64,000 nucleotides of DNA from a virus: UHGV virus genome UHGV-0036853. One strand, written 5' to 3'. The notes below the pieces were generated by a model, which worked only from the letters and a program-made list of their open reading frames with translations, did not search any database and had not been told where the DNA came from. The first letter of the stretch is position 1; each line of letters opens with the position of its first letter. Below, one piece after another: positions 12,841 to 56,280 of this stretch. A program made the translations under genes and the position numbers.

Positions 12841-13227
12841 ATGTCTGACAACAAGATTGAATTTATAGAAAGTCGCTATGCTGCTTTTATCGCAGGGCTG
12901 ATTGAATCCTCACCTATGAGTCAGGCCCAAATAGCCAGACTTATTGGTTATAAAAATGCCAACAACCTTTCTTTAATTAAAAGTGGCAAAATTCCTTTGC
13001 CTATCGATAAGGTTCGTCCGTTGGCGCTGGCGCTGGGTATTGAGCCAAGTCGTCTTATGATGATGGTGCTGGAAGAACGCCAACCTGAACTCGCAGCATT
13101 TTTATACAAAGAAGGCACCGCTCCTCTTAACGAGGACGAAAAACAGGTTCTTGCTGCATATAACGAGCGATTCGGTAAAGAGAAAGGCGCATCACAAAAG
13201 GTTGTTGAGGCCATAAAGTCTCTATGA
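12841..13227 (+). CDS. HTH (XRE-like) transcriptional regulator
   Basis: helix-turn-helix signature SQAQIARLIGYKNANNLSLIKSG; convergent with integrase. Confidence 0.55.
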   Translation: MSDNKIEFIESRYAAFIAGLIESSPMSQAQIARLIGYKNANNLSLIKSGKIPLPIDKVRPLALALGIEPSRLMMMVLEERQPELAAFLYKEGTAPLNEDEKQVLAAYNERFGKEKGASQKVVEAIKSL

Positions 13228-14325
13228 AAAATTTACACGAATAAGCTCTGTTGATAGACGATCTCCCTTGAATTTGTGGTCAATTTCGTCTAAATCCGGT
13301 TGCTCTACGATTGATGCGATGTACGTCGAGAAACTTTCTAAGGCGTCTCGCATCTCGTCCATATAATCGTGCCGGTCGTAGACCCGATCTATCCCCTCAA
13401 GACTGTGGTTCATGATTTTGCGTGATACCTCCTGGCTTATGCCTAATGCTGGGAAGTAACTACGCGCAGTACGGCGCAAATCTCGGGGTGTAAATGGCTC
13501 AAGCTCCATCAGTTCTGGTCTTTCCAGAATACGACGTAATGCCTGGGCTATTGCCACTTTGGACATAGGAAGGTCTTTCCCGATTTTTTTATTCGAAGGC
13601 ACGAGCCACTGGCTGTCTTTACCGTATTCGAACAACTCTTCAATGCATGTGCGCATTAATGTGCTTAAAGGCAGCGAATGCTCACGTGCTGACTTGTTTC
13701 TCTTGCCTTGATTCCAAACCCCACGCTTAAGATTGAACTCACTTTTTTTAGCCCGCAGTACTTCGTCAGGTCGTCTTGCTGATACAAGACACAGCCTGGC
13801 CGCCCATTTTGTACCAGCGCACACATTGAAGTAGTCCCATATATTCCAGAACACCCATACCTCTGCGTCGGTCAGCTTCCGCTCGCGAGGTGTGGGCTTT
13901 GCGCCACCGGCAACTTTGTTTAGTGACATATCGTTTAACGGTGACACGTCTATCATCCCCTGGAAGGCGCACCAGCTAAGGAACTGCTTCATCAGAGAGA
14001 AAACGCGGCGGCCCATAACAATTTTGCCATCCAGTATTAGTGGGTTGACCAGTTGGTTCACCATGAACCTATTAATGTCACTTACTTTTACATCGGCAAT
14101 GTGCGGCAAAACATGTATCAAAATACAATGAACAGCGATCTCTGGCCGACGTCTGGTTATCAGCAGAGATAAGCGAGTGAATAACATGAATGCGTCCGAG
14201 AATCTCATATCATTGCTAACCTGCGAGATCATAACGGCCTGCATTTGAGATGCTCTTTCGAGATACTCAATCGCCTCTTTTGAGGTGTTCTCCGCAGCGC
14301 GTGCTCTGTCAAAGCTATTTTTCAT
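13222..14325 (-). CDS. tyrosine recombinase / integrase
   Basis: C-terminal catalytic region with RDLRRTARS, NHSLEG and Y in DRHDYMD. Confidence 0.75.
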   Translation of the reverse strand: MKNSFDRARAAENTSKEAIEYLERASQMQAVMISQVSNDMRFSDAFMLFTRLSLLITRRRPEIAVHCILIHVLPHIADVKVSDINRFMVNQLVNPLILDGKIVMGRRVFSLMKQFLSWCAFQGMIDVSPLNDMSLNKVAGGAKPTPRERKLTDAEVWVFWNIWDYFNVCAGTKWAARLCLVSARRPDEVLRAKKSEFNLKRGVWNQGKRNKSAREHSLPLSTLMRTCIEELFEYGKDSQWLVPSNKKIGKDLPMSKVAIAQALRRILERPELMELEPFTPRDLRRTARSYFPALGISQEVSRKIMNHSLEGIDRVYDRHDYMDEMRDALESFSTYIASIVEQPDLDEIDHKFKGDRLSTELIRVNFS

Positions 14326-14413
14326 ATGACAATCACCGAGTTACGCCGATTCACTGTATAAGTAAACAGTATATTAGGCATAGATTCTTATAGGATCAAG
14401 AGTAAAAGTAACT

Positions 14414-14446
14414 CATTTTCACTAATGATTCCATACATAGTAGGTA
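14414..14446. promoter_or_regulatory. perfect 13-bp-arm inverted repeat, candidate operator
   Basis: aatgattccatac atagtag gtatggaatcatt; half-site copies near 17238-17254 and 18251-18267. Confidence 0.5.
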
Positions 14447-14509
14447 TGGAATCATTTAGACGTTGTTTTTTGAATTTTAAGGGAAACAGGAGTGAGTTTG
14501 GTGGGAATA

Positions 14510-14533
14510 AAAAAACGGCTCCTGTGAGCCGTT
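14510..14533 (-). terminator. intrinsic terminator downstream of glutaredoxin gene
   Basis: hairpin cggctcctgtgagccg followed by T-run on minus strand. Confidence 0.55.
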
Positions 14534-14537
14534 AAAA

Positions 14538-14783
14538 TCAGAGGGTGCTGACGTATGCAGCCAGTTCTGTGTATCCGCCAATCGGCTGGCCATCGATCAG
14601 CACCTGGGGGATAGTCTCTACCGGTTTACCAACAATTTCACTTAGTTTTTCCTTGTCGATACCGGCAGTGGTGATGTCGATGTACTCATAATCACCGTAG
14701 CCATGTCCCTTTAGTTGCTTCGCCAGCTCGACTGCACGTTTGCAGTATGAGCAGTTATCTCGTCCGTAGATAGTGATCGTCAT
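14538..14783 (-). CDS. glutaredoxin (GrxA/NrdH-like)
   Basis: CSYC active site; KPVETIPQVLIDGQPIGGY matches the glutaredoxin fold. Confidence 0.8.
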   Translation of the reverse strand: MTITIYGRDNCSYCKRAVELAKQLKGHGYGDYEYIDITTAGIDKEKLSEIVGKPVETIPQVLIDGQPIGGYTELAAYVSTL

Positions 14784-14956
14784 AACCTAACAAATACCTT
14801 TATAAATATTGATTCGAACATATCAGACTATACTACAAACAGATTTTTTTGATAAGTATGTAGTAACTTATTGATTGACTGGTAAACAATTGAAGTGATT
14901 ATGACAATAGATTACAGTAAGGATTGCCTTGAAATGTACATTTTATAGAGGTTTTA

Positions 14957-15865
14957 ATGATTGGTAAGTTGTCTGATTCTTTGATTGAAAATAAATACAA
15001 CGAATTTAGAGAAGAAATATCTTTACTTTTTGACTATTTAAATCAGATAAATGATACAACAAAGAAAAATATAAAACGTCTTCTAAAAGAAGTGGAGTAT
15101 GCACAGAATCCAGATACTATTATTAATATTAATGAAACTATTAAGATTAAGTGTGGCACAACGTTAGCTCGCCATTTATGTTCAAACCCATATACAGGTT
15201 CAACATTAGAGATAGGTAACAGCGCCATTGATTTAGAAGAAAAGATAAGATTGTGTAATGTTTTGAAGAATAAACAATATCAGTGGGTTATTACTGAAGC
15301 CTATGAGTTACTGGAAGACTATATTGAGGCAATATATGTCTATACTGTATGTGTTCGAAATGATTTCTGGTCCTCAAGTAATTTTGGTAAGGTTGAAGAT
15401 GATGACATTGGGAAAGGGGAAGTTTATTACAAATTATTAAAAGCAAAAAGTAACCCATCGAAAAAAATAATTAAAATTTTCAGAAATAAAATACCTGGCT
15501 TCAAAGAGATAGAAATAAACAACAAGATTGGTAAAAACTATCGCTTTAACATCAAGCTAATTGAACTACTAAGACATACAATAGTACACAATAGTGGACG
15601 ATTCAATGATACAGAAAAATTTATAAATAAGGTTTTAGATGAATCTGAAATAAACGGTAAGAAAAGAGTTATTGGAGAAAGAGCTGTTAGAAGTTACATT
15701 GCTAAAGTGCAAGAAGATGATATTGTAATGCTCTTAGAAAGACCATCTGAAATTTTTGGTTCTTTTGGTGGTTATTTTAACAGAGCAAAATTTTTACTAA
15801 GTGATATTTTAGAATACTCACTAATCATTAAAGAAGAACTAAAATCATATCTAGGCAATCATTAA
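14957..15865 (+). CDS. AT-rich accessory protein, possible HEPN-type (Abi-like) protein
   Basis: 302 aa, low GC by eye, Rx4H motif RHTIVH, own terminator; functional call is weak. Confidence 0.4.
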   Translation: MIGKLSDSLIENKYNEFREEISLLFDYLNQINDTTKKNIKRLLKEVEYAQNPDTIININETIKIKCGTTLARHLCSNPYTGSTLEIGNSAIDLEEKIRLCNVLKNKQYQWVITEAYELLEDYIEAIYVYTVCVRNDFWSSSNFGKVEDDDIGKGEVYYKLLKAKSNPSKKIIKIFRNKIPGFKEIEINNKIGKNYRFNIKLIELLRHTIVHNSGRFNDTEKFINKVLDESEINGKKRVIGERAVRSYIAKVQEDDIVMLLERPSEIFGSFGGYFNRAKFLLSDILEYSLIIKEELKSYLGNH

Positions 15866-15869
15866 CAAA

Positions 15870-15896
15870 AAAAGGGGCCGAAGCCCCTTTGAATTT
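15870..15896 (+). terminator. intrinsic terminator
   Basis: ggggccgaagcccc hairpin followed by T-rich tract. Confidence 0.7.
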
Positions 15897-16044
15897 TGCG
15901 CTGAAAAAAGTGTTGCTAGGATGTTAGCAAGCTATGGTTAAGAACGTCTGCCGTAATTGTCTATCACAGCGTTGAGCGGTCTGGTTTATGTTAGCGGAGT
16001 CTTAATCTGGGTGATTAAAAGGCCAAACCGCTCAACGCTGTGTC

Positions 16045-16131
16045 TGGCGGAGAGTAATGGAATCGAACCATCATCGCTTGCGCAATGGGACGGTTTTCAA
16101 GACCGCTTGAGCACCATGCTCCCTACTCTCC
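16045..16131 (-). tRNA. tRNA-Ser (anticodon UGA), long variable arm
   Basis: cloverleaf by hand: acceptor GGAGAGT/ACTCTCC, anticodon loop CTTGAAA, T-loop GGTTCGATTCC, encoded CCA. Confidence 0.7.
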
Positions 16132-16799
16132 GGCCGTTGTGGTGGCCGGTACTGAATCTCCGGCATACGGTGCAGCCAATTAGGACTACGGACGATCACC
16201 GCTCGCGAAAGGGAAGATTTGCGGCCGCATTTCCCTAACATCCAAGAAAGCTATCGCATCAGTCTGCGAATCCACCACAACGGAAAGAGCATTCACGTCT
16301 CGCGTGCCACCACGAATGGCAACTCAGAGAGTCGAACTCTGAAAATGCTCTTACCTGTTGTGTGCTGTGTCACTCCCTCCGCTATTACCTGGCTTTGCCT
16401 CGACCTTTTAGGTTGCGTCCGATGATAAACAGGGCTGTCGGAAATTTGTCTGTGACACAGCGATAAGAGAACTCGATGCATTTAAGCCAAGCCCCATATG
16501 GGAAGTTCTCTTATCTGTTGTGCGCTCCGTTTCGTGGAGCTAACGGCGGGTGAACAGGCCGCACCAGGTTGGACATATTTCAGCGTTATGCTGTTGCAAG
16601 AGAGCCAAATTGTGATGGTCGGTGCTGAACTCCGACACAGGGTTGTAGCAAGCCCCGCAAAGCGCGCACTACTGTAGTTGCGGCACATCAGCCTGTGCAT
16701 TCACCACAATGTTGAGAACACTGGTTGTCACGCTGCAACGCAACATTTATTCATAGATTGGGATATGACCCCGTTACGCCAATGTTCTCAATATTATGT

Positions 16800-16875
16800 T
16801 GGTGCCGGTTAACGGACTTGAACCGCTGACCATTCGCTTACAAAGCGACTGCTCTACCAACTGAGCTAAACCGGC
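16800..16875 (-). tRNA. tRNA-Thr (anticodon UGU)
   Basis: acceptor GCCGGTT/AACCGGC, D-arm TAGCTCAGTTGGTAGAGCA, anticodon loop TTTGTAA, T-loop GGTTCAAGTCC, CCA. Confidence 0.75.
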
Positions 16876-16879
16876 AATT

Positions 16880-16966
16880 TGGTGGGGAGTGATGGAGTCG
16901 AACCACCCGAGTCGCAATGACAGTAGATTTACAGTCTACCCCGCTACCCCTACGGACTAACTCCCC
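16880..16966 (-). tRNA. tRNA-Tyr (anticodon GUA), long variable arm
   Basis: acceptor GGGGAGT/ACTCCCC, anticodon arm GTAGA-CTGTAAA-TCTAC, T-loop GGTTCGACTCC, CCA. Confidence 0.7.
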
Positions 16967-16971
16967 TAAAT

Positions 16972-17046
16972 TGGCGATGGTGGGTGGATTCGAACCACCG
17001 ACCAGTTGGTTAACAGCCAACTGCTCTACCGCTGAGCTACACCATC
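16972..17046 (-). tRNA. tRNA-Asn (anticodon GUU)
   Basis: acceptor GATGGTG/CACCATC, anticodon arm GTTGG-CTGTTAA-CCAAC, T-loop GGTTCGAATCC, CCA. Confidence 0.7.
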
Positions 17047-17824
17047 AATTCGGCACTGCCAGTATTTATTACTCAACAGTGCCAATCGCGACGGTTTAGT
17101 TTCTGCCAGGAAACGCACCGCTACTTGCACTTTTCGTTAGTGCCAGACGCTTTCGACTTCGCTCAATAGTAGAAGGCAAACTCTTTAAGTAGATGATGTT
17201 TCTGAGGACAGCACCTACTTTGTAATTTATACAATGTGATGTATGGAATCATTTGTTGTGAAAACAGGCACCAATGGCAACAGTGGTTAAACCTACACAA
17301 CTATTCTGTCTTCACAACGTTGAGGCCACTACTCCGATTGAATGTTTGCCCAACATGTTACATATCAACGCTCGCCGGTATCTCTGTGAATAGAACCTTA
17401 GAATTGATAAAAATGTAATGGCCTCAACGTTGTGTGCTGGCTAACCATACCAGCCGGGCTACGTCGCCGCTTTTTAACCCAGTATAAACGACATAATTGA
17501 ACAAAATGACGTAACAGAATGGGCGGTCAGTGGCTAAGAATCCGGGAGTCATATGGAGTTGAAAATATACCGACCGCCCATTCTGTTACTTCATCGGAGG
17601 GAACACTCATGTTCCCTCCTGCGTTCTGCAATCACACTCGCTCAGTGTGTCCCATTTCGGTAACGAGGCTGGAAACTGACCTCGCTGGTGTTTGGCTTAT
17701 TAGGCTACTGCCAGATAGACTTCTTCGTTTGCACTTGTATTTAAGTTCAAACAGTCGCGTCTCAACGAAAACAAAGTCATCTTATACACAAAAGATAAGT
17801 AAGTAAATACTTATCAATATGTTT

Positions 17825-53515: not shown

Positions 53516-54058
53516 ATGGGTGTACTTGACATTGATAGTAATTACTTAAGTGCAAGGCGAATAAAGGAATGTGTTCATATCTATTGTAAATCAAAGCAGT
53601 CTTGTTTAGAAAAGCAGGCGTACCTAACATCTTCTCAAAAAGGAGAGCACAAACTCATCAAATATAAACTAAAGGCTTCGCGCAAAGATCGTTATGAGCA
53701 CTATATATACGTAAAGGATATTGAAGGTACCAAGACAAATTGCGGTATTATCTTTTATCCCTATGATATATCAAGACTGTTCTCCATTATGAAATCCTGT
53801 GTCGGCGTAGCTCCAGGTAAATTAGAGTTGCATTCAAACTTATACGATTACCCAAATGCTCAAAAACTGATAAACGATAGCACTTCGTCCTATGGATTTT
53901 CGTTTCTCTTTAAGAATCATCTCGCATTGAAAGATTTCATCGAAAAATACAATGAAGGAATAATATCAGGCGAATTAAATTTCAACAAAATCTGCGGAGA
54001 TATAAAAAGGGACGACCTCTTAATAGATATTTACAACAGAACCCAAGTTAACGTGTAA
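53516..54058 (+). CDS. hypothetical protein (AT-rich island)
   Basis: ORF, low GC. Confidence 0.45.
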   Translation: MGVLDIDSNYLSARRIKECVHIYCKSKQSCLEKQAYLTSSQKGEHKLIKYKLKASRKDRYEHYIYVKDIEGTKTNCGIIFYPYDISRLFSIMKSCVGVAPGKLELHSNLYDYPNAQKLINDSTSSYGFSFLFKNHLALKDFIEKYNEGIISGELNFNKICGDIKRDDLLIDIYNRTQVNV

Positions 54059-55629: not shown

Positions 55630-56280
55630 ATGGCTAACATTATCATTTCTAAAAAATCCATCATTGAAGCTGCTTCCATTGTATCCGATGAACTGCGCGA
55701 AAAAGCAGATCTGGCAACTCAAACATATAACGAACATTATAAAAATGGTACGCACACTAAAGCAGACAAAGCAAATATGCAAGCTGCGACCACTAAACTT
55801 GCTTACTTCATCAACAACGTCGTAAACGCAGTAGAAGACGAAAAATTATGCTCTGTTTTCTACTATGCGATTAAAGCAAGCAAACAAGCGCCAGAAGTAT
55901 TTTTCCGTGATGCAATGACTAATAGTTATTCACTGGAAAAACTGGTTTATCTGGTTAAATCCATTAAAGCTGGTAAATGCGTTTATTCCGTCGCTGATAT
56001 GTCAGGATCTCGTGTATTCGCTTTAATCGATATGATTAACGACGAGATCGACACGTTCACTAATGGCGCTGTTTTCGATTTAATGAATGAAGCTAAAAAA
56101 GCGTGCGAAATTAAATTGGACGCTGGCTATACTCAAGCCAACCAGTTGATCAATCTTTGCGAACGTCTCGGACTTGTTGAGAAAGTCAAAGGAGCTGGGA
56201 GCGCAAAAGCTGGTACTCAGCAATATCGCTTCATTAAAAATGATTTCTACAATTATTTAGCTGATGCTTTCAAAGCGTAA
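55630..56280 (+). CDS. hypothetical protein with own strong promoter
   Basis: 216-aa ORF. Confidence 0.55.
   Translation: MANIIISKKSIIEAASIVSDELREKADLATQTYNEHYKNGTHTKADKANMQAATTKLAYFINNVVNAVEDEKLCSVFYYAIKASKQAPEVFFRDAMTNSYSLEKLVYLVKSIKAGKCVYSVADMSGSRVFALIDMINDEIDTFTNGAVFDLMNEAKKACEIKLDAGYTQANQLINLCERLGLVEKVKGAGSAKAGTQQYRFIKNDFYNYLADAFKA

Follow-up and report, generated by a model that had tools for sequence, protein, structure and literature searches.

A predicted solo HEPN-like protein carried in a replaceable cargo slot of SSU5-like phage-plasmids

The 64,000-nucleotide stretch of viral DNA analyzed here (UHGV virus genome UHGV-0036853; hereafter, the window) belongs to an SSU5-like E. coli phage-plasmid. 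Escherichia phage CMS-2020a is 98% identical to it, and its kin include many closely related plasmids of ~110 kb each; phage-plasmids of the SSU5 type are frequent in E. coli, Shigella, and Salmonella of clinical origin. Our subject is a single open reading frame (ORF) on the plus strand (positions 14957-15865, ATG start), which encodes a 302-amino-acid protein that we predict to be a solo HEPN-like protein. An AGAGG sequence resembling a Shine-Dalgarno site can be read 5 nt ahead of the start codon (14947-14951, plus strand), and a scan for promoter consensus elements picked out a sigma-70-like candidate farther upstream (TTGACT and GATTAT with a 16-nt spacer; 14875-14902, plus strand), which is a consensus match only (9 of 12 positions). 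The initial annotation, made from this DNA alone, had placed the gene within 14790-15900, between an integrase/glutaredoxin block and a tRNA cluster, and this placement is accurate. To the left of the ORF is the glutaredoxin gene grxA (14538-14783, minus strand) and to the right is tRNA-Ser(UGA) (16045-16131, minus strand); both belong to the phage-plasmid backbone. The tRNA-Ser gene opens a minus-strand cluster, Ser-Thr-Tyr-Asn, which occupies positions 16045-17046. An Rfam scan of positions 14400-17600 returned tRNAs only.

Together with its leader, the ORF forms a replaceable single-gene cassette in a fixed slot of the SSU5-like backbone, bordered by grxA and tRNA-Ser. When the window is aligned with phage Cyrano, homology ends at ~14784, at the start codon of grxA, and returns at ~15868, 2 bases past the stop codon of the ORF; the replaced unit measures 1084 bp (14784-15867; GC content 0.287), close to the interval that had been delimited initially. 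In Cyrano, the slot is occupied by a Gp49-family gene, and a member of the ORF family is absent. Comparison with a plasmid carrying a 60%-identical allele (L002) gives a similar picture: the backbone is 96-100% identical, the cassette including its leader is 63-72% identical, and the edges are sharp. The same slot in other Enterobacteriaceae phage-plasmids contains divergent alleles with 39-43% amino acid identity, always on the plus strand and with neighbors on the minus strand. In Enterobacter hormaechei p1_020038, the slot holds a plus-strand gene for a 398-amino-acid protein (L003:2839-4035), which shows no similarity to the 302-amino-acid protein and is unrelated to it; this protein has a sub-threshold match to the Pfam model putAbiC (E value of 0.0044; 17.9 bits versus a cutoff of 22). 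The backbone integrase is present in 252, and the cassette in 30, of the 5426 complete E. coli genomes searched, which identifies the gene as accessory. All E. coli copies are on plasmids and none are on chromosomes, and the carriage of ~12% among related E. coli phage-plasmids is a lower bound. Unlike an integron cassette, the gene in the window moves via homologous replacement of the slot between conserved flanks and not via attC recombination.

The cassette also differs from its surroundings in composition, as had been noted initially. The GC content of the ORF is 0.290 (0.228 at third codon positions), compared to 0.459 for the window, and it is the lowest among the 47 window ORFs of at least 150 amino acids (median, 0.477). 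The lowest-GC stretch of 1084 bp in the window begins at position 14801 and is ~4.6 standard deviations under the mean. Comparison of the ORF with its divergent alleles gave ratios of nonsynonymous to synonymous substitution rates (dN/dS) of 0.14-0.26; thus, the gene is under purifying selection. The next lowest-GC long ORFs of the window, at 53516-54055 (plus strand; GC content 0.35) and 55630-56277 (plus strand; GC content 0.39) versus a median of 0.48, may be further accessory cargo.

A GC-rich hairpin, AAAGGGGCCGAAGCCCCTTT, is located at positions 15871-15890, just downstream of the cassette, with folding energies of -14.3 kcal/mol on the plus strand and -16.7 kcal/mol on the minus strand. 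This hairpin, which had been assigned to the ORF as its own terminator, is real, but it is a part of the backbone: it is also found in Cyrano, although Cyrano lacks the ORF, and it is the sole part of the 14790-15900 interval that the two have in common. On the minus strand, downstream of tRNA-Ser, the stem is followed by a run of seven T residues, whereas on the plus strand only GAAUUUUG follows it. Because of its conservation in the backbone and the location of the T run on the minus strand, the hairpin is not the ORF's own terminator; it is best read as a putative bidirectional terminator common to the convergent ORF and tRNA cluster.

The leader of the cassette contains an operator-like palindrome, TAAGTATGTAGTAACTTA, at positions 14853-14870, which matches the 18-bp sequence TAAGTAAGTACTTACTTA. 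There are ~12 sites of this kind in the window versus 0.4 expected (start positions 8, 3522, 14853, 17796, 21318, 24752, 28978, 33762, 40674, 44558, 46065, and 51357), and almost all of them are intergenic, located 12-100 bp ahead of the genes that open minus-strand operons. In the cassette, the palindrome ends 4 bases ahead of the TTGACT-16-GATTAT promoter-like site. The 14853-14870 block is kept in the leaders of alleles with 39-60% amino acid identity, and the palindrome is confined to SSU5-like loci, where it also heads the unrelated slot cargo of Enterobacter (L003:2644-2661); it is absent from the slot of Cyrano, which has no plus-strand cargo. The palindrome looks like a control element (operator or promoter) of a regulon that spans the phage-plasmid, and the product of a helix-turn-helix protein gene at 12841-13227 is a candidate for its binding partner. 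Its location before the slot cargo suggests that the cargo is wired into this phage-plasmid-specific regulon. The ORF had been initially described as horizontally acquired cargo. This description stands in that the gene is accessory and is compositionally foreign wherever it is found; on the other hand, divergent alleles share the slot and the leader has a palindrome of the backbone type, so the cassette is a regulated accessory module of long standing rather than a recent import.

The protein belongs to a large and widespread family. Our first search returned 7 clusters and a profile search returned ~100 proteins, whereas HMMER, run exhaustively against 1.84 billion representatives, identified 501 clusters with E values of 1e-3 or less. 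The best 150 of the 501 clusters are standalone proteins of ~290 amino acids (mostly 280-310 amino acids), and conservation over the full length extends to more than 200 representatives from many phyla. In species-representative genomes, we found 47 loci in Gamma-, Beta-, Alpha-, and Deltaproteobacteria, Campylobacterota, Bacteroidota, Spirochaetes, Nitrospira, and Aminicenantes. In IMG/VR, 16 viral contigs carry the gene, 8 of which are SSU5-like. Upon scanning of Pfam, PADLOC, NCBIfam, and PHROGs, the sole named family that matched was phrog_35492 (function unknown). None of the Pfam, PADLOC, and NCBIfam models matched the protein, the family consensus, truncated segments of the consensus, or the 94 members used for the alignment below above threshold.

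In an alignment of 94 sequences with 21-60% identity, only eight columns are invariant in every sequence: Y108, Q109, W110, E117, R206, H207, H211, and G214; E114 is kept in 88 of the 94. The most conserved block, N105-K-Q-Y-Q-W..E114..E117..E-D121 (15269-15319, plus strand), falls within a long helix (residues 93-133) and is a candidate for helix 2 of a HEPN domain. The second block, R206-H-T-I-V-H211-N-S-G214 (15572-15598, plus strand), contains the RHTIVH motif that had drawn attention to the ORF initially (residues 206-211; 15572-15589) and is the predicted catalytic site. The Rx4H motif in a single sequence is uninformative, because 17% of shuffles of the ORF protein contain one by chance; one is also found in 18 of the 47 long window ORFs. 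The signal comes from its invariance across homologs: all 212 full-length representatives carry the motif, with the arginine followed by H in 210 of them and by N in 2.

We then considered the fold. An AlphaFold2 model built on the 94-sequence alignment has a predicted local distance difference test score of 91.8 and a predicted TM score of 0.88, and it is all-alpha but for two beta-hairpins. The N-terminal part (14960-15229, plus strand) consists of a long helix (residues 2-50), a short helix, and the first beta-hairpin (residues 69-91); it is a predicted stalk and a possible sensor or oligomerization module. The core comprises the long helix of residues 93-133, four short helices (residues 134-194), and a helix of residues 195-212 that ends with R206-H211. 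A loop containing G214, a helix of residues 219-229, more helices, the second beta-hairpin, and a C-terminal helix complete the model. According to Anantharaman et al. (2013; PMC3710099), the HEPN domain is a four-helix up-down bundle with frequent inserts between helices 2 and 3; the Rx4-6H motif ends helix 3 and runs into a loop, a polar residue (N, D, or H) follows the arginine, and helix 2 provides an acidic residue. When the model was compared with known folds, 114-127 residues were aligned and the target domains were nearly wholly covered, which points to a four-helix up-down bundle resembling solved HEPN domains. R206-H211 forms the last two turns of helix 195-212 with a loop after it, a 60-residue insert (residues 134-194) precedes the motif helix, and the polar residue after the arginine is H or N, as described above. 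As candidates for the acidic residue, the invariant E117 and the largely conserved E114 both lie in helix 93-133, but not in the canonical Ex3[KR] arrangement.

It is quite probable, judging from the predicted structure, that the family belongs to the HEPN superfamily. The lack of a HEPN-like fold had been named as an outcome that would speak against the initial proposal; the predicted structure points to such a fold after all, given that the invariant R-H-x3-H ends a helix running into a loop. Thus, the HEPN-like designation is supported at the level of fold, by virtue of the invariant motif and its position at a helix end, but by no sequence model. The checks proposed initially against the HEPN, Abi_2, and AbiEii models of Pfam gave no match. 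Abi_2 (PF07751), AbiEii (PF08843), and the PADLOC Abi models, in particular, did not match the protein with an E value of 10 or less and are absent among the listed matches to family members; as candidates, they were rejected. We could place the family in none of the curated HEPN families tested. It shares with the lactococcal-type HEPN abortive infection proteins (AbiD/AbiF, which correspond to Abi_2, and AbiJ, AbiU2, and AbiV) a standalone organization, a length of ~300 amino acids, an Rx4-6H motif, and carriage on plasmids or prophages, but no Pfam or PADLOC model of those proteins, or of the other HEPN families defined by Aravind and colleagues, matches the protein, its consensus, or any of the 94 members above threshold. 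It is most probably an unannotated new family within a well-known superfamily and functional class.

Genomic neighborhoods of the homologs provide the functional context. In Vibrio furnissii, the homolog forms a one-gene cassette of a chromosomal integron array, with attC-like repeats on either side. The Burkholderia pseudomallei homolog shares an integrase island with Shedu (SduA_C), ABC-3C domains, and toxin-antitoxin (TA) genes; the V. crassostreae homolog is downstream of a HEC-04-type ATPase; and another homolog adjoins HicAB and an MNT-HepT fusion. We compared the 4 nearest and the 4 distal ORFs at 30 loci. Resolvase (7) and Phage_integrase (5) are the most frequent of the 59 Pfam families in the near set, which also include FRG, AAA_21, ABC-3C, HepT, and an IS110 transposase, whereas the far set contains 132 Pfam families, mostly housekeeping. 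In the near set, PADLOC returned strong matches to PD-T7-1 (two), PD-T7-5 (two), PDC-S15 (two), PDC-S18, PDC-M68B, and PDC-S13, as well as to a type I restriction-modification S subunit, a cyclase of the cyclic-oligonucleotide-based antiphage signaling system, LmuB of Lamassu (two), and HEC-04. In 7 cases, a serine recombinase (Resolvase) is one of the two genes closest to the homolog, so some homologs may ride on a small resolvase-bearing mobile unit. In all 10 loci analyzed, the GC content of the gene is 7-21 points under that of its flanks, and no conserved partner gene was found across the 30 loci. The cassette holds no small ORF, and positions 14700-15950 of the window contain neither tandem nor ToxI-like repeats. 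As far as sequence can tell, these neighborhoods, the low GC content, and the lack of a partner are the profile of a mobile solo gene of defense islands. In this respect, the family resembles orphan effectors of integrons and defense islands, with a one-gene attC cassette in V. furnissii and other homologs located between recombinases and defense genes. A defense or exclusion role, suggested tentatively by the initial annotation, is probable in view of the defense-island and integron neighborhoods of the homologs.

On balance, we favor as the probable explanation that the ORF encodes a solo HEPN ribonuclease, lacking an antitoxin and activated by infection, that acts as an abortive infection or exclusion effector. 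In the mechanism that we infer, from ribonuclease activity and oligomeric control to trigger and antiphage outcome, the protein would be a standalone, metal-independent HEPN ribonuclease of an unannotated family, carried as accessory cargo in a swappable SSU5-type slot and made from its own promoter under the phage-plasmid-specific operator. Because no antitoxin gene accompanies the ORF, we propose that the protein would be kept inactive as an oligomer. A competing phage or another invader would be sensed, possibly via the N-terminal helical stalk and the beta-hairpin; two Rx4H motifs (R206/H211, aided by H207 and E117) would then form the active site. By cutting RNA (tRNA, rRNA, or mRNA), this site would abort the infection and thus protect the host population of the phage-plasmid.

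The closest precedent in organization is HepS (STM14_3211) from the Salmonella prophage Gifsy-1, a solo HEPN abortive infection anticodon nuclease whose closed oligomer is opened by a phage protein (PMC13043305). In both cases, a single HEPN-type protein is encoded in an accessory position of a temperate mobile element with no partner or inhibitor gene, and the closed HepS oligomer is a plausible model for keeping an antitoxin-less HEPN protein inactive. The likeness is organizational only: the HepS motif is R100-H105 and the protein is much smaller, whereas the ORF product has 302 amino acids with an N-terminal helix of ~50 residues, a beta-hairpin, and the 60-residue insert. Surveys have recorded few recognizable defense systems on SSU5-type phage-plasmids (bioRxiv 10.1101/2025.09.12.675607). 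To these elements, the present analysis adds a fixed cargo slot with exchangeable content, bounded by grxA and the tRNA cluster, in which ~12% of the E. coli elements hold a member of this family, and a phage-plasmid-specific palindrome ahead of plus-strand slot cargo in the loci examined. If ribonuclease and antiphage activity were confirmed, the family would provide a new model for defense-finding tools and the second antitoxin-less HEPN effector on a temperate element, after HepS, and its long helical stalk with the beta-hairpin would become a candidate sensor module.

Several observations weigh against this explanation. There is no sequence-level bridge to the HEPN families tested in Pfam, PADLOC, and NCBIfam, where the only HEPN traces are sub-threshold: PF05168 with an E value of 0.049 in 1 member and DUF3644 with an E value of 0.011 in 2 members. 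A search of PDB sequences with the family profile (E value of 10 or less) returned no HEPN chain from a copy in which the presence of HepS is unconfirmed; its best match was the CmlS halogenase, with an E value of 0.004. An hhalign comparison with HepT, for which 41 Pfam-confirmed proteins made up the profile, gave a probability of 0.08%, a negative result that is weak because the template is narrow (~70% identity). Foldseek returned no significant match from PDB or BFVD, because long helices dominate the comparison. Searching the literature with the protein accession and the PHROG number retrieved nothing on any family member, and the PADLOC scan of neighboring genes covered the near set only, without a distal control. 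Finally, many backbone operons have the leader palindrome at their heads as well, and the gene could therefore be expressed with lytic or early genes and not in the lysogen, which would fit the defense of a lysogen less well. Lysogenic versus lytic expression of the palindrome regulon would decide between the role of a guard of the lysogen and that of a lytic weapon.

The latter role defines the first alternative, that the same HEPN-type ribonuclease is offensive: expressed with lytic or early genes, it would degrade RNA of the host, a competitor, or a defense system as a means of anti-defense or host takeover. Co-regulation with the phage program is suggested by the 18-bp palindrome, placed in the leader as it is at the heads of ~10 backbone operons. 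Moreover, the slot adjoins the tRNA cluster, and the T5-like tRNA-rich region is an anti-defense island encoding Rad, a 189-amino-acid TOPRIM-type protein reported to reduce retron noncoding RNA (bioRxiv 10.1101/2023.03.15.532788). However, the ORF is not Rad: its product has 302 amino acids, is nearly all-alpha, and has no TOPRIM match, and identity with this anti-retron protein was rejected. Most family members are chromosomal and are located in defense islands, integron arrays, and recombinase islets, not in phage anti-defense loci, and the gene is present on only the 16 IMG/VR contigs mentioned above, half of them SSU5-like. Homologs outside phage-plasmids have no nearby tRNA genes, and we therefore do not regard the tRNA link as a property of the family. 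An offensive role thus appears rather unlikely.

On the one hand, a HEPN-like bundle does not have to be a ribonuclease. Some HEPN folds are noncatalytic, for example, MtlR and nucleotidyltransferase-associated domains (PMC3710099), and the protein could be regulatory or ligand binding, or an enzyme with a metal site formed by H207-x3-H211 and E114/E117. The two histidines are both invariant and separated by a single turn of the helix; with the similar spacing of E114 and E117, this pattern could bind a metal. The family also has no sequence link to catalytic HEPN families, and the weak similarity of its conserved helix to the CmlS halogenase is unexplained. On the other hand, noncatalytic HEPN domains typically lose the Rx4-6H motif (PMC3710099), whereas here the arginine and histidine are invariant in all 212 representatives, and the defense-island context favors an effector. 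We therefore judge a noncatalytic or metal-dependent function to be unlikely.

Still less support can be found for a plasmid addiction toxin that would stabilize the phage-plasmid together with an unrecognized antitoxin, either a small RNA or the product of a distant gene; we regard this alternative as improbable. HEPN ribonucleases are frequent as TA toxins (e.g., HepT/MntA and RnlA/RnlB), one homolog is next to HicAB and the MNT-HepT fusion, and a neighboring variable slot of related plasmids carries the YafO toxin. The motif is also similar in style to that of HepT, R-[N/H]-x-[IV]-[AV]-H (MRNRIAHGY in HepT versus LRHTIVHNSG in the ORF). However, the protein is more than twice the size of HepT, is not matched by PF01934, and is not aligned with HepT by profile-profile comparison, as described above. 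A type VII system of the HepT/MntA kind was rejected, as there is no adjacent gene for an MNT nucleotidyltransferase, the cassette contains a single gene, and the 30 loci have no conserved neighbor. A type III (ToxIN-like) system was rejected owing to the lack of tandem repeats in 14700-15950. The same features count against addiction in general: no neighbor gene is conserved across loci, small ORFs and tandem or ToxI-like repeats are lacking from the cassette, and the homolog in Vibrio is a single-gene integron cassette. Furthermore, only ~12% of the related plasmids have the gene.

The proximity of the tRNA genes also raises a very improbable variant, in which the HEPN protein would act as an anticodon nuclease and cut host tRNAs (e.g., Ser, Thr, Tyr, and Asn isoacceptors), while the element's own tRNAs would sustain its translation. 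Gene and cluster would then constitute an RNA-level toxin and immunity pair within the palindrome regulon, serving host takeover or competitor exclusion. However, the tRNA complement differs among relatives, from Asn alone up to Ser-Thr-Tyr-Asn, and tRNA sets vary independently of the cassette, which argues against such a pairing. Lastly, the extreme AT content and the annotation as "hypothetical protein" only might suggest that the ORF is spurious or decaying and lies in an AT-rich spacer, but this is effectively refuted by the dN/dS values of 0.14-0.26, the full-length conservation in more than 200 representatives from many phyla, and the confident AlphaFold2 fold.

Several minor observations concern the protein family and its genomic setting. 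Residues ~93-180 (15233-15496; profile positions 84-173) resemble, weakly but repeatedly, the helical part of CmlS, an FAD-dependent halogenase: in addition to PDB entry 3i3l (E value of 0.004), the NCBIfam model halo_ClmS matches 13 of the 94 members (best E value, 1.3e-5) and the Pfam model Trp_halogenase matches 2. This similarity may be convergent. PADLOC models of Csn2 match 10 of the 94 members (best E value, 8.6e-5) and those of Cas13d match 2 (0.0018); the Csn2 matches are probably compositional, arising from K/E-rich helices. The integron array on V. furnissii chromosome 2 (L004:1-16912) is long, with attC-like repeats of ~125 nt (TAACAAA...GCGTTA), and its cassettes include genes for DJ-1/PfpI, MazG, SHOCT, DUF4238, and acetyltransferase proteins.

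A second variable slot, at 14459-14556, lies between the integrase gene (13222-14325) and grxA and is empty in the window. In pGD31-F25 (L018), it contains the gene for the YafO toxin and a 202-amino-acid gene product, and in Cyrano it contains a gene for 184 amino acids; two further loci (L016 and L017) additionally carry colicin M and a microcin-like gene there. Between tRNA-Ser and tRNA-Thr (16132-16800), ~490 bp (16292-16780) are missing from close relatives. Positions ~16456-16815 match the plp/upl and tRNA region of phage-plasmids of the P1/P7/D6/RCS47 type at 91-94%, a sign that SSU5-like and P1-like elements may have recombined at tRNA genes.

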